Shown: in pieces, positions 14,244-63,872 of the stretch
Layout of the letters: each line of letters begins with the position of its first letter
Position numbering within the stretch: position 1 is the first letter of the stretch
The notes under the pieces: generated by a model
What the model was told of the DNA's origin: nothing
Seen by the model: only the letters and a program-made list of their open reading frames with translations
Databases searched by the model: none
Assembly: GCA_045863235.1 (NCBI GenBank)
Contig: BTUM01000004.1
Coordinates: 64,001 to 128,000, forward strand
Length of the DNA stretch: 64,000 bases
DNA from: Candidatus Xenobia bacterium
GTDB lineage: Bacteria > Vulcanimicrobiota > Xenobia > Xenobiales > QWHO01
Reading direction: 5' to 3'
Program-made: the position numbers and the translations under genes

Positions 14244-15755
14244 CTATTCCTCTTCGTAGCCTTTGCGGCGCACCCGCACGGCGCCCACCACAACCGCCTC
14301 CTCATGCTCGCGCAAGTTGGCTCGAGCTCCCGACTGAGCGGCCAGCAGTGCCTGCAGGGCGGGGTCGATGCGCTGACGCTTGCCAAGCTCGCTGGCCCAG
14401 GTATCTCGCTCTTTCGCCAGCTCGGTTCGCAGGGCGTTCTCCGAGGCGCGATCCAGGCGCACCTTGCCGATCGGGAGGGTCATGAGGGCGGCCCCTATCG
14501 TCACTCCGATGGTCGGCCCCAGCGCCAATCCGAATGCGCCCGCAGCCAGGGCGGCTCCCGCTCCCACGGTCAGGAAGGGCAGCACCACCAGTCGGGCGAT
14601 GTGCTTCTGGCGCAGCTCGATTTCGCGCGCCTGGTAGCGTCGCAGCAGCTTATCGCGCGAGAGCGAGCAGGCCTCGGTGTAAAAGTCGGCCCGCTGACGG
14701 CAGACCTGCAGGCTGTCCTGAGCCATCGACAGGGCCGAGTCGGGATGGAGCAGACCGGCAGCCGCGCAACCGCCGGCCGTGGCGGCCACGGGTGCCAGGG
14801 CAAACATCTGGTCGGTGGACAGGCCCAGCTGGTGGGCGATCAGGTGGTCGTTGGCCACCACTCGGGCTCTGAGGGTACCGTCGTGCGGAGTCAGAGCGTT
14901 GGTCGCGGCGGCGGTCAAGCCCTGGAGGACCTCCGGGCCGGCTTCGGGATGAAGCCTCAAGACGCGCACAGCGGTGGCGGCGCGCTCTTCCTGGCCCTGC
15001 TGGGATGACTCGCGGTAGACCAGATCGGCCATGGCCTTCAGGCTCTGCGCCGGGATGGTGGGCTGGTGCTTGAAGGCCTGCTCGTAGCCGCGCAGCAAGG
15101 CCCGGCGTGAGGAGAGCTCGCTGTCGCGGTTGACGGCCTCTCCGATGGTCTTGATCCGGTCACTTTCCAGGGTGGGGTAGCGGACCATCATGGCGTTCAG
15201 ACTGCCCAGCTTGAGGCGCCGGTCGGCGGTGGACTTGCCCTCGTTGACGAACACCCGCACCTCGCGCAGGGTTTCGGGAGAAAGGGCTGGGTTCTTCCCC
15301 AGCATGGAGGTGACCTGGTCGAGCACCATCGTGCGCGCGTCGAGACCCGGGCTGTGGTCGACGAGCACGCGCAACTGGGCCACGAAGGCCGGGCTGAGGT
15401 GGGGCTGAATCTTGAGCATCTCGTTCAGGGCCGAGAGCTTCTCGCGGTAGCCCTCGGCCGAGTTGGAGCTCATGAGAAACTTGCAGGTCTCCTCGAGCAG
15501 ATCGTCTGTCAGGTTCGGCTGGCGACGATACAGGCCGGCCAGGCCCTCGAGCTTGGCGGCCTTGCCCTCGGGGCTGGCGCTCCGGCCGAGGGTCCGGGTG
15601 ATGAGCTTCTGCGCCCGCGGGCTGAGCTCGACCGGGAACTCCCGGAACGGACGCCCGGTGGAGCGGGGCACCAGGGTTGTCGCCTGAACCAGCATAACAG
15701 GGCTGAGTATGCCCGCCAGGGTGGCAGCAGATGTGAACTGAGGGTTAACTGTCAT
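14244..15755 (-). CDS. Orphan with 38-aa helical repeats, TM hairpin and shared C-terminal VxVGxVR motif
   Basis: Long ORF with periodic P-x-L repeats, two TM segments, C-terminus LREHEEAVVVGAVRVRRK. Start uncertain (15755 or 15773). Confidence 0.8.
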   Translation of the reverse strand: MTVNPQFTSAATLAGILSPVMLVQATTLVPRSTGRPFREFPVELSPRAQKLITRTLGRSASPEGKAAKLEGLAGLYRRQPNLTDDLLEETCKFLMSSNSAEGYREKLSALNEMLKIQPHLSPAFVAQLRVLVDHSPGLDARTMVLDQVTSMLGKNPALSPETLREVRVFVNEGKSTADRRLKLGSLNAMMVRYPTLESDRIKTIGEAVNRDSELSSRRALLRGYEQAFKHQPTIPAQSLKAMADLVYRESSQQGQEERAATAVRVLRLHPEAGPEVLQGLTAAATNALTPHDGTLRARVVANDHLIAHQLGLSTDQMFALAPVAATAGGCAAAGLLHPDSALSMAQDSLQVCRQRADFYTEACSLSRDKLLRRYQAREIELRQKHIARLVVLPFLTVGAGAALAAGAFGLALGPTIGVTIGAALMTLPIGKVRLDRASENALRTELAKERDTWASELGKRQRIDPALQALLAAQSGARANLREHEEAVVVGAVRVRRKGYEEE

Positions 15756-15842
15756 GCTCGGTCCGGGCTTCACGTCAGTCGGGGAGCTGGCGAGAGATGA
15801 ACGAAGGCGGGGGTCCGGGTTGTTCGGCAGGAGTTTCGCTTA

Positions 15843-15858
15843 TGTGAAGGACTTCACA
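15843..15858. promoter_or_regulatory. CRP/FNR-family binding site
   Basis: Perfect TGTGA-AGGACT-TCACA, intergenic, about 90 bp upstream of the 15755 gene. Confidence 0.7.
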
Positions 15859-15955
15859 GAACGCCAGGCAGCCATCCTACAGCGATTGTTCGGAAGGTTT
15901 TCGTTTCCGCCGGAAAGTCAAATGCGCTGCCCAATGAGCTAGCTGCATCACTCTG

Positions 15956-61330: not shown

Positions 61331-61399
61331 CCGGGTCACCTCGACTTTCCAAGGATGACCCCGCCTCGGAGCGCTAGACCAATTTGCCCCGGGTGAGCT

Positions 61400-61428
61400 A
61401 TGTTACCGAAATGTTAACCAGATGTCAA
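61400..61428 (-). promoter_or_regulatory. sigma70 promoter overlapped by three 11-bp-period direct repeats
   Basis: TTGACA-17 nt-TAACAT; + strand ATGTTAC/ATGTTAA/ATGTCAA at 61400, 61411, 61422. Confidence 0.75.
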
Positions 61429-61592
61429 GAGTCCCGGGCTGCCTTCTTCAAGCGCTCGAGCTCGACCAGCCGGGTCTGGATGACTTCCAGCGACAGATTG
61501 ATCCGATCCTGGCCGCAGCAGCACGGAGGCGTTGTCTCGTCGGGCGACTCCATACTCCCTGAGACAGACCGACAGGCAGAAAAGTTCCCGGT

Positions 61593-63872
61593 TCAGGAAC
61601 GGCGGCGGAGGCGCACGCTGCCGACCTGGACCGCTCCCGGCTGCTCGACCACGGCTCCCCCCGGGCCGGTCGGAACCCCACCAAAACCTGCCAACACCTG
61701 CTGGCGGGCGGCCAGGGCGTCCATCCCGCCGTCCTGGAGGCCCTTCAGCTGGCGAAAGAGCTCCACAGCCTGGTCTTGCTTTTCGACCCCGACCAGGTCG
61801 AGCAAGTAACGGAAGTCCGCCATCCCTTCTCCGCGCGAGATCTGGTAGGCGGACAAAGCGGTCTCCAGAGTGGTGCCGCCTTGCTGGCAATCGAGCACCT
61901 GCCGCCAGGCCTCTTCGGGAGAGGTCACAAAGGCCGTCAGAACCGGGTGCACCTGGGCCACCCGGGTCATCGTGCGCAACTCGTCGAGCAACTCTCGCTC
62001 CCAGTCCGCAGCGTGGGCCCGATAGGCCTGCTCGAGAGGCTCGTGCGACAACCCTCCCGCGGTCGAAAGTCGGACGGCCACGGGGAGACACTCCGAGCGC
62101 TCAGCCGGGGGGGAGTCAGCTCGCCCGAACGGCTCGAGCTGCCGCTCGAGCAAGGCGACCCCCAGGTGGTCCCAGAGAAACTCGGCCGCCACTCGCTTTC
62201 CCAGGAGCAAGGCCAGGGCATCGGGCGCCTGGGCGAGCATGGAGCGATCACGGCAGGCCTCAAAGAGCGCCTCCACCACTTCGGTGGCTTTCTCGGGAGT
62301 GAGCTGATCGCTCGGCGGCAGATTGGCCAGCAGAGCACGAGCCGAGACGGCGGCCTCAGGGTCGGGTCGATAGGCCTTCTGCCAGGCCATCATGGCCGCA
62401 TCCGCCATCTGGTCGTCCAATTCCAGGCCCTGCGACGACTCGAGCAGGCGGGCCACGACCGATCGCTGCTCGTGGCGGCCCAGGGACTGGAGCCTGGCTC
62501 CTTCCTGCTCGACGCAGGCCAGGGCCAGCCAACCCGCCGCCTGACGCGAGCGCGAAGAAAATGCCGCGGTGCCCACCTCGTGGAGCTTGTCGAGCAGGTC
62601 GGGGCCGCGCACACCCGGGCAGCGAAGCAGGGCGGCCAGCTCGTAGAGAGGCGTCAGGTCGTCGGTCACGGGGAGGCGACCCTTCAGCTGCTCGAGGTTC
62701 TCGCGCACTACAGGCTCGAGCTCGCTCACCCGCACCTGAAGAGCGTGGGGAGAGAGTGTGCTCAGCGAGCGCACCAGTGCATCCTCGGCTCCCCCCTGCA
62801 CGTCCTGGAAAGGACCGCGCATGTTGATGCCCAACCCGAACAGGTCGCGGCCGATGGCCAGGCGCTCGGCCATGGGGCCCTCGGCCCCGGCGAGCCGGGT
62901 CAGCAGGGCATCCCGCTGGGGCTCGCGCACCAGCTTGTCCACCTCGTTGCCGAGGTAGTTGCGCTCCTGAAAACGCTCGTTGGTCAAGAGGTCGACCAGC
63001 TTCTGCTTGTCGGGCGCCTCCAAAGGCAAGGAAATGAGCACCGACAGACGGGTGCGATCGACTTTGTCCATGGCCTGGCTGTGCCCGGCGCGAGCGTAGG
63101 CAGCCTCGGCGGCCTGCAAGAGGGCGGCAACCAGCGCCGGCTCCGGCCTGATCAGGCTGTAGTAGGTTTCCAGCCCGTTCCAGCTGCTCATGCCCTTCAG
63201 CAGGGCGGTCCGCTCGGAATTGGGGTCAGGATCGTGGACCAGGCGGTCCACAAGGGCGGTGGAGAGCGAGACCATCCGGCCCCGGGTGTCGGGCAACTCC
63301 TCGCCGGCCAGAGCAGCACGGTCGGCCTTGCTCAACCCGGCCAGGAACTCGTGCAGGGGCTCGTCCTTGAACAAAGCCGCGGACTCGTCGCCCGGCGCAA
63401 AGGGCAGATAGAGCCGGGCCAACGGGTCGGGGCAGCTGGTTTCGGGCCGACCCAAAGCGAAGTTGGCCGCTCGCGCCACCAGGGGATCGTCTGACTGCGA
63501 CCAGGCCACCAGAGGAGCCGCCTCCTCCTCCGAGAGCTGGCTGGCGCGATGGCGCTGCCCAAGCTCGACGAGTCGAGGCAGGATCTCACGGCGCTCAGCC
63601 TGACGCAGGCGTCGGGACCAGTCTTCGGGGGCCGAGGGGTCCTGAATTGCTCCCTCTTCGGACTGCAGCAGCGCTGGGGGAGCCGCGCTCGCGCTGGCCG
63701 CGGGCGCGCTCGGAGAGGGCGCGGCCTTCTCAGGCTTCTCCGCTTTCTGAGGAGCGCAAAGACGGGTCGAGTCGGCCGGTTCTGGAGGGTCGGGGGGCGA
63801 TGCCGTCAAGGCGGCCGGGGGCGGCTGCGCGGTGGCTGGCAGGCCTGTGATTGTGACCCCCTGAATGATCAT
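61593..63872 (-). CDS. Large helical orphan with Pro/Ala-rich N-terminus and shared C-terminal VxVGSVR motif
   Basis: MIIQGVTITGLPATAQPPPAA start; HEAT-like SDDPLVARAANFALG; ends VVEQPGAVQVGSVRLRRRS. Confidence 0.8.
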   Translation of the reverse strand: MIIQGVTITGLPATAQPPPAALTASPPDPPEPADSTRLCAPQKAEKPEKAAPSPSAPAASASAAPPALLQSEEGAIQDPSAPEDWSRRLRQAERREILPRLVELGQRHRASQLSEEEAAPLVAWSQSDDPLVARAANFALGRPETSCPDPLARLYLPFAPGDESAALFKDEPLHEFLAGLSKADRAALAGEELPDTRGRMVSLSTALVDRLVHDPDPNSERTALLKGMSSWNGLETYYSLIRPEPALVAALLQAAEAAYARAGHSQAMDKVDRTRLSVLISLPLEAPDKQKLVDLLTNERFQERNYLGNEVDKLVREPQRDALLTRLAGAEGPMAERLAIGRDLFGLGINMRGPFQDVQGGAEDALVRSLSTLSPHALQVRVSELEPVVRENLEQLKGRLPVTDDLTPLYELAALLRCPGVRGPDLLDKLHEVGTAAFSSRSRQAAGWLALACVEQEGARLQSLGRHEQRSVVARLLESSQGLELDDQMADAAMMAWQKAYRPDPEAAVSARALLANLPPSDQLTPEKATEVVEALFEACRDRSMLAQAPDALALLLGKRVAAEFLWDHLGVALLERQLEPFGRADSPPAERSECLPVAVRLSTAGGLSHEPLEQAYRAHAADWERELLDELRTMTRVAQVHPVLTAFVTSPEEAWRQVLDCQQGGTTLETALSAYQISRGEGMADFRYLLDLVGVEKQDQAVELFRQLKGLQDGGMDALAARQQVLAGFGGVPTGPGGAVVEQPGAVQVGSVRLRRRS

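Follow-up and report, generated by a model that had tools for sequence, protein, structure and literature searches.

Tags at protein termini, such as the C-terminal domains (CTDs) of the type IX secretion system (T9SS), the tails of type IV secretion system (T4SS) substrates and the dockerins, are how secretomes have been recognised, and each new tag has exposed a machine together with its repertoire. T4SS signals require VirB4 and VirD4, and to our knowledge those at the C-terminus have no strict sequence motif. Dockerins are calcium-binding folded modules of ~70 residues on Sec-exported enzymes. Signals for type III secretion are described as unstructured, with an enrichment of Ser, Thr, Ile and Pro, and as occurring at either terminus (PMC10333785), and an account of early flagellar subunits describes a bipartite N-terminal signal made of an extreme hydrophobic part and a second motif at a set distance (PMC8983047). 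Here we analyse a short C-terminal peptide motif, referred to as the tail, that ends four genes in a 64,000-nucleotide stretch of DNA from a Candidatus Xenobia bacterium, an uncultured member of the Eremiobacterota (contig BTUM01000004.1, positions 64,001 to 128,000; the whole stretch is called the window). Our tentative reading is that the tail is a docking or address tag, read by one common receptor, that sorts a subclass of a large, co-regulated, Sec-independent and probably type-III-exported repertoire.

The window lies within contig C4 of a metagenome-assembled genome (G000) of 8.36 Mb with 65.8% GC in 166 contigs, estimated to be 97.6% complete and 2.6% contaminated, in which 6580 genes were crudely called. 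Gene starts, signal peptides and hydrophobic segments were assigned throughout by simple heuristics, and the relatives used for comparison were few and mutually non-independent. A loose regular expression run on all six-frame open reading frames (ORFs) of at least 50 aa gave 37 matches, 35 of which lay no more than 16 residues from the stop codon. A tail profile built from 34 tails and rebuilt once yielded 175 C-terminal versus 25 internal domain matches, with five of the internal ones reaching at least 15 bits; in the five proteins with an internal motif it stands ~200-340 residues from the end. At a score of at least 13 bits the tail is carried by 162 ORFs on 82 contigs, corresponding to ~2.5% of the 6580 genes, and the match is followed by a median of 2 residues (range 0-27) and by no more than 10 in 147 of the 162. 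The preliminary description of the window had expected a profile to hit the very ends of many orphan proteins, and this was borne out by ~160 matches, nearly all in the last ~30 residues.

The tail spans ~25 residues, with the consensus G/A-[VIL]-x-E-x4-V-x-V-G-G-V-R-[VLI]-[RK]-[RK]-[RK] in 138 anchored tails. Arg or Lys occupies positions +8 to +10 in most of these aligned tails, and the hairpin part is conserved, with an invariant G, a V-x-V and an E at -5. The occurrence of the motif at gene ends on 82 contigs might suggest a passenger of repeated DNA, such as the end of a mobile cassette or an in-frame terminator-like repeat, with no function in the protein. Information at the tail codons reaches 2.56 bits at positions 1 and 2 and is 0.1-0.5 bits at the nearly free position 3, so that selection acts on the peptide and not on a DNA repeat; V, I and L interchange freely, as do R and K, and orthologues that have diverged in the rest of their sequence still have an unchanged tail. 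The passenger reading is contradicted by these observations and is essentially excluded. The tail motif is real, far above chance and under purifying selection at the protein level. The Pro/Gly/Ser/Ala linker that had been noted ahead of it did not hold up, these residues being no more frequent at -45 to -25 than in the protein bodies.

None of 34 isolated tails matched Pfam or NCBIfam at E values up to 10, and no PDB sequence matched the tail profile; the tail is thus not explained by an annotated domain, an outcome that the preliminary description had named as a refutation. Against 1.84 billion representative proteins the profile gave 22 matches at E <=0.001, of which 19 end no more than 7 residues from the C-terminus; among the 10 that were looked up, the four with a name were all Eremiobacterota hypothetical proteins. 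Literature on Eremiobacterota and type III secretion yielded no description of the tail motif or of the promoter and leader presented below. At E <=1e-5 the profile matches 46-68 places per genome in five genomes of the window's genus, whereas 16 genomes from two further families of its order have no match. When 121 genomes were sampled across the phylum, the window's genus had at least 45-59 tail matches per genome; outside the genus, five genomes have 1-2 matches and the other 111 of 116 have none. The tail is confined in bulk to one genus.

With their tails removed, the 162 bodies fall by single-linkage BLAST into 86 clusters (sizes 31, 21, 10, 5 and so on), 71 of them singletons. The bodies had been called otherwise unrelated; the window's two ~800-aa proteins indeed have no significant pairwise similarity (best E 0.16), yet both belong to the same single-linkage cluster of 10 paralogues. 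A Sec-like signal was assigned by a crude heuristic to 0 of 142 tail genes versus 747 of 4925 other genes (15%), which agrees with the original statement that the tail proteins have no Sec signal. Pfam scanning of 48 carriers found no family in 40, a MAM, CUB, F5/8C or PQQ-type propeller domain in eight and a plain catalytic domain in none. Hydrophobic 19-mers occur in 58 carriers, central hydrophobic segments are present in 40 of the 54 carriers of up to 360 aa, and the longest carrier has 1838 aa. Among 926 neighbours within four genes of tail genes, no gene family is clearly enriched (best p 0.002, for a family that itself has tail members).

AlphaFold models were examined for two carriers, a propeller protein (mean pLDDT 79.9) and the 198-aa product of the third window gene (65.4). 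Both models have a confident core, from which the first 19-27 residues and the tail stand apart with pLDDT values of 30-44 and 39-49, respectively, and the tail of the propeller protein is modelled as three short strands. The tail is therefore predicted to be a flexible appendage outside the body. Of the beta-hairpin proposed earlier, the short flexible strands apart from the body are recovered in prediction, at pLDDT values too low to make the hairpin anything firmer than a suggestion. Folding of the N-terminus and the tail together was also considered and is unsupported by the two models, in which both ends are of low confidence and apart from the body.

Tail genes share more than their ends. 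A TAnnnT box stands 5-8 nt before the first start codon in 58 of the 162 tail genes versus 276 of 6438 other genes. Upstream regions aligned on this box read TTCAG-N6-TTTCAG-N10-TA[GA][GA]CT-N6-ATG, the box ending 6-7 nt before the start, and this spacing of the -10 box to the start codon implies leaderless mRNAs. The -35 element is replaced by a tandem repeat with an 11-bp period, which we take to resemble the geometry of a PhoB/OmpR-type activator site. Start choice by Shine-Dalgarno sequences proved uninformative in this GC-rich genome and was replaced by the -10 box rule. A position weight matrix (PWM) of 34 nt was trained on 75 tail-gene upstreams, which match it by construction; with a cut-off of 16 bits it picks out 371 sites versus 19 in the reversed sequence, and with one of 20 bits 292 versus 4. 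Such a site at the lower threshold, hereafter the regulon promoter, lies upstream of 105 of the 162 tail genes. An ORF of at least 60 aa begins 4-10 nt past the promoter at 256 sites; 103 of these ORFs bear the tail and 153 do not, and in 20 of the 153 counted as tail-less a degenerate tail is found by regular expression. A small family (G000 C32:68044-70242, C3:76161-78410, C3:123379-125997, C135:163-2361 and C10:924-2966) has regulon promoters of up to 34.1 bits; four of its members are among the five internal tail hits, with the motif ~200 residues before the end and an unannotated C-terminal domain after it.

The regulon ORFs also resemble each other at the start, which tends to M-[QRNKHE]-[IVL]-x-P. 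Among them, 62.5% have I, V or L at position 3 (20.2% of other genes), 23% have Pro at position 5 (8.4% of other genes) and 24% have the motif D-x-[VF]-x-[LP]-[STG] at 12-50 residues (5.6% of other genes). This N-terminal leader is a candidate export signal. The longer form M-x-[IVL]-x-P ... R-P-x-A-A ... D-x-[VF]-x-[LP]-S is common to tail-bearing and tail-less members and to the sister genera. It is speculation that its R-P motif is a cleavage site for the C11 peptidases of the regulon, which belong to an Arg-specific family.

Promoter and leader extend beyond the genus that has the tail. Counts per genome of the exact pattern TTTCAG-N10-TAnnCT-N5-8-RTG are 31-60 in the genus's five genomes (controls 0-1) and 17-48 in two genera of a neighbouring family; elsewhere in the 121 phylum genomes it is near background. 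In one sister-genus genome (G013), 22 ORFs behind such promoters retain the leader. In another (G017), all 20 regulon ORFs sampled start with M-x-[IV]-x and none has the tail. Leader and promoter are thus present in sister genera that lack the tail, so the tail appears to have been added, within this one genus, to a regulon and leader that were already there. Nine of the 22 G013 ORFs end, by eye, in a looser, acidic-ended and hairpin-like L-x-h-x-E-x-x-V-x-I-x-G-x-x-h-x-h (loci L031, L034, L036, L037, L039, L041 and L045). A profile of these nine recovers its own seeds and one more match only; that this motif corresponds to the tail in diverged form is possible, a weak indication.

These distributions bear on what the tail is for. 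Some 130-150 members of the same regulon and all 20 sampled sister-genus ORFs lack it, which makes primary export signal an improbable role for the tail, and the earlier idea of the tail itself as the mark for export is not supported. A specific version of that idea is a C-terminal secretion signal of the kind found in HlyA-type or T4SS substrates, read by an ABC-type exporter similar to the type I secretion system (T1SS) or by another exporter. The tail is C-terminal and probably uncleaved, its carriers have no Sec signal, many of them are very large (up to the 1838 aa given above), and the genome is rich in TolC-family outer-membrane factors (~20, from 39 domain matches), all of which would suit such a signal. 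Set against it are the same-regulon, same-leader members without a tail, the sister genus that has the regulon and no tail, and the five proteins whose motif lies ~200-340 residues from the end. In addition, neither an ABC/MFP gene nor any other linked family is enriched beside tail genes (ABC/MFP genes were not searched for as such), no RTX repeat or domain is found in the 48 scanned carriers, and VirB4 and VirD4 were not found in G000. We consider a secretion-signal role for the tail quite improbable.

Pfam domains were found in 32 of 60 scanned tail-less regulon members and are mostly those of effector-type enzymes. They include nucleic-acid and phosphate enzymes (two endonuclease I proteins, EEP, DSP-PTPase, 5'-nucleotidase, GDPD, DHH and histidine phosphatase), lipid-related proteins (two PlsC-type acyltransferases, lipase-like hydrolases, a caleosin, an MGDG synthase and a lipid desaturase), peptidases (C92, C26, two M48, S51 and C11) and others (glycerol-3-phosphate oxidase, PAD-like and LOG-like proteins, alpha-amylase and YidD). 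The carriers being co-regulated with effector-like enzymes, the early phrase of a large effector or cargo repertoire fits. The two classes differ in kind: carriers are binding, repeat or membrane-hairpin proteins, and tail-less members are often enzymes.

This division is also what would be seen if the tail acted at the destination without any protein receptor. Once exported, an amphipathic hairpin would attach through its Arg/Lys end, without an intermediary, to an anionic surface, be it the cell's own lipopolysaccharide or outer membrane or the membrane of a prey or host, and would retain adhesin-like and membrane-hairpin proteins there. Carriers of adhesion or binding type (MAM, CUB, F5/8C, propellers) or small ones with hydrophobic hairpins (the 40 of 54), together with enzymes of a released type in the same regulon that have no tail and the strongly basic tail end, are in its favour. 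The conservation of the hairpin (G, V-x-V and E at -5) nevertheless exceeds the needs of simple electrostatic binding, and the possible counterpart in G013 is acidic-ended, a weak objection in that nine of 22 were assigned by eye and their profile recovers the seeds plus one match. Such a direct anchor seems unlikely to us.

Several regulon members deserve mention in their own right. A caleosin-like EF-hand protein (C13:65121-65699, L085), an MGDG-synthase-like glycosyltransferase (C7:89531-90676, L071) and a lipid desaturase (C14:121664-122644, L052) belong to the regulon; these lipid-directed domains, partly typical of eukaryotes, give a hint of interaction with eukaryotic or foreign membranes. 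The regulon promoter is also found on YidD-like membrane proteins and C11 (clostripain-family) peptidases, including an 825-aa YidD-C11 fusion on C7; the loci concerned are C7 (825-aa ORF), C147:4206-4883, C5 (235-aa ORF), C75:16992-18941 and C11:108958-112284. The second-best regulon promoter, at 32.8 bits, precedes a 133-aa protein that has neither leader nor tail (G000:C24:1148-1546 (-), L049, P0042). This protein is single-copy and found only in the window's genus, in four of the five genomes at 71-98% identity. Its look-alikes in the Atlas were uninformative; as a candidate, it may serve proteins of the tail class as a partner, chaperone or regulator.

The preliminary description had looked for one machinery to co-occur with the tail, and among the systems searched no machine specific to it was found. 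G000 has no match to VirB4 (PF03135), VirD4 (PF02534), TssC (PF05943) or the contractile phage sheath (PF04984), and none to the encapsulin shell PF04454, a model of family 1 only, in a genome 97.6% complete; encapsulins, T4SS, the type VI secretion system and contractile systems were thereby not recovered as the machine. The genome encodes three secretins. It also has one flagellar-type type III locus (contig C27:48001-84666; L021 and L022), containing FlhA, FlhB, FliP, FliQ, two FliN-like proteins, FliI, FliJ, FliF and a FliK-like protein as well as rod proteins, hook-like proteins and a lytic transglycosylase. G000 gave no match to a flagellin domain. Among 21 relatives, flagellin is present in five genomes only, all of which also have a second full-length FlhA, and it is absent from the eight genomes of a small-genome family.

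Three tandem genes in the type III locus encode an identical 81-aa helical protein (L021 7986-8231, 8350-8595 and 8806-9051, all (-)), their DNA differing only synonymously. The C-terminal ~75 residues of a 533-aa protein of the locus are 41% identical to residues 7-81 of this protein. Members of the 81-aa family turn up in 18 of 21 related genomes, mostly next to FlhA; the protein is 99-100% identical in the genus's four genomes that retain tandem copies. Its nearest named look-alikes by language-model features are the HrpA and HrpE pilins (0.90-0.91), taken as a lead only; a role as subunit of a pilus, a needle or a minimal filament is possible. A regulon promoter lies upstream of copy 3 of the 81-aa gene (24.7 bits) and of a flgB-like gene (16.3 bits), and an EEP-type regulon gene (promoter 26.1 bits) directly precedes a soluble paralogue of the FlhA cytoplasmic domain (FlhA-C). 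There are five such soluble paralogues without the membrane part (C80:28174-29157, C3:27006-27977, C1:377670-378254, C106:14902-15816 and C107:14606-15352), two of them fused to a FliG N-terminal domain. FHIPEP matches number 5-17 in related large genomes and 2 in small-genome relatives.

That no export machine tracks the tail would be expected if the tail never left the cell. As an intracellular handle, it would be held by a chaperone, an assembly factor or a protease (as a degron or processing site) controlling a developmental regulon. A flexible and exposed tail and a regulon with several C11 and M48 peptidases and YidD-like membrane proteins fit this possibility. The MAM, CUB, discoidin, PQQ-propeller, endonuclease I and lipase domains are, however, typical of extracytoplasmic proteins, and it would be unusual for a degron to occur on 162 proteins and to be kept so strictly among orthologues. 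We rate the handle as low as the secretion signal.

The reading that we tentatively favour is a sorting tag read by a common receptor. The older N-terminal leader, common to the sister genera, would act as the export signal. The tail, a later add-on of the window's genus, would form a short beta-meander that joins onto the receptor, its basic end supplying charge complementarity. At the export gate the receptor would give the tail class its rank; alternatively, it would keep these proteins together at one destination. Parts of this two-signal picture are supported by the published type III signals at both termini (PMC10333785) and the bipartite signal of early flagellar subunits (PMC8983047). 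Several points weigh against this reading. Export and every localisation of tail proteins are read from sequence, gene starts are inferred, the signal-peptide heuristic is crude, and the promoter PWM and leader profile were trained on tail genes. The receptor is a postulate, no gene family being enriched beside tail genes, and the tail is of low confidence in AlphaFold, where the beta-meander is a suggestion. No recognisable regulon promoter precedes 57 of the 162 tail genes, including the first and fourth genes of the window, and the promoter link to the type III locus consists of two PWM matches. Related families that have neither tail nor promoter nevertheless possess the type III locus, the 81-aa family and the soluble FlhA-C paralogues; the presence of type III parts in tail-less lineages means that type III presence does not track the tail.

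A broader claim, possible but doubtful in our view, would make the tail a novel address label invented by one genus of the phylum: a 25-residue C-terminal beta-hairpin with a basic end on ~160-180 unrelated proteins that sorts one class of substrates of a flagellum-derived, flagellin-less type III system, within an effector regulon of 250-370 genes with a tandem-repeat, leaderless promoter and a conserved N-terminal export leader.

The four tail-bearing ORFs of the window and their tails stand at the positions first given for them. None of the four proteins has a Pfam or NCBIfam match above threshold. Gene 1 (14244..15773 (-)) encodes 509 aa from the first GTG, with a likely start at ATG 15755 (MTVNPQF...); its product has hydrophobic segments and one paralogue elsewhere in G000, its tail lies at 14247..14318 (-), NLREHEEAVVVGAVRVRRKGYEEE, and the PWM finds no regulon promoter upstream. 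Gene 4 (61593..63872 (-)) likewise has no PWM match upstream; it encodes 759 aa from the likely ATG (MIIQGVTITG) in an ORF open to 63989, and its tail is at 61596..61658 (-), GAVVEQPGAVQVGSVRLRRRS.

Gene 2 (32343..34745 (+)) encodes 800 aa with the N-terminus MIVSAPGLAW and the tail at 34662..34742 (+), GVAEREDSVVVGGTQIKRRERGQEGPS. Its regulon promoter at 32301..32334 (+), with the TTCAG-type repeat and the -10 box, scores 20.9 bits, and the -10 box ends 8 nt upstream of ATG 32343. A search of 5.8 billion proteins found only six homologues, at 43-90% identity, each of which retains the tail. Parts of gene 2 are matched at 95-99% likeness by contigs of four RNA-library runs that come from two studies of wastewater or sludge, a weak hint of expression in view of possible DNA carry-over and of a transcript start that is not readable from them.

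Gene 3 (42875..43471 (-)) encodes a predicted helical protein of 198 aa with a central hydrophobic hairpin. Its ORF is open to 43498, and 43471 is taken as the true start because the resulting 198 aa agree with the orthologue length; the N-terminus from 43471 downward reads MNLTSTLPVRASG. The regulon promoter at 43478..43511 (-) scores 27.3 bits, and the -10 box TATTCT ends 6 nt before ATG 43471, which implies a leaderless transcript. The tail lies at 42878..42937 (-), VVQVDEAAVTLGGVRIKVRK, and its core EAAVT[LV]GGVRIKVRK does not vary even among orthologues whose overall identity is as low as 53%.

New in the present analysis are the shared leaderless promoter, the N-terminal leader, the tail-less co-regulated set, the regulon promoter on a pilin-like gene of the flagellin-less type III locus and the tail-less sister genus. 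Tail, promoter and leader together predict a regulon of several hundred genes, made up of orphans and effector-like enzymes, through which the lifestyle of a phylum that has hardly been cultured can be approached directly. A predatory lifestyle has been suggested for large-genome marine Eremiobacterota in one account (PMC9259500), mentioned here as context only, with that lineage not equated with G000. If the broader claim above is true, the tail would represent a previously unknown secretion and targeting code and the regulon a new effector arsenal in bacteria of wastewater-type habitats. The receptor could be sought among the small set of genus-specific, co-regulated proteins. Being short, flexible and transferable, the tail could be tried as a targeting module in reporter fusions.

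Compared with described systems, the regulon has several likenesses to type III secretion. Its leader is predicted to be unstructured and is Ser/Pro/Ile-rich, as type III signals are, with a second motif 20-35 residues on, and an extra signal on membrane-hairpin proteins recalls the class-specific signals of type III translocators. The export core is present in G000 and one copy of its pilin-like gene has a regulon promoter match upstream, a circumstantial link. Known type III signals, unlike the tail, are not conserved motifs, and no C-terminal hairpin tag has been described among them. Encapsulin cargo peptides (LTVGSL-type) share with the tail a short C-terminal hydrophobic-x-hydrophobic-G-[GS]-hydrophobic core followed by basic residues; encapsulin cargo is a small set of soluble enzymes beside the shell gene, in contrast to 162 dispersed carriers of up to 1838 aa, many with hydrophobic segments. 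In the sorting signals of sortases, exosortases and rhombosortases (LPXTG, PEP-CTERM and GlyGly-CTERM), the motif runs on into a transmembrane helix and a basic cluster, and the proteins are Sec-exported; the tail differs in having charged residues after the motif, no hydrophobic helix, no Sec-like signal and no model match. With T1SS substrates it shares a C-terminal, probably uncleaved position and the lack of a Sec signal; the ABC transporter, MFP and TolC of a T1SS are usually linked to the substrate gene, and RTX repeats are often present. T4SS effector signals (Dot/Icm, VirB/D4) are similarly short, charged, unstructured and C-terminal on large Sec-less sets; they are set apart from the tail in G000 by their requirement for a VirB4-type ATPase and a VirD4-type coupling protein, which were not found there. 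Dockerin-cohesin pairs also place one C-terminal module on many unrelated proteins with a common partner, a functional resemblance only, and differ in that cellulosome dockerins have a scaffold protein, none having been identified for the tail. In the Bacteroidota, the T9SS CTD (Por secretion tail) folds into a beta-sandwich of 70-100 residues, and its proteins also have a Sec signal, unlike a flexible tail of ~25 residues with no Sec signal and no model match. In common with the tail, it is a portable C-terminal tag on dozens to hundreds of unrelated proteins per genome, and T9SS tags are read by a single sorting system, as we propose for the tail.

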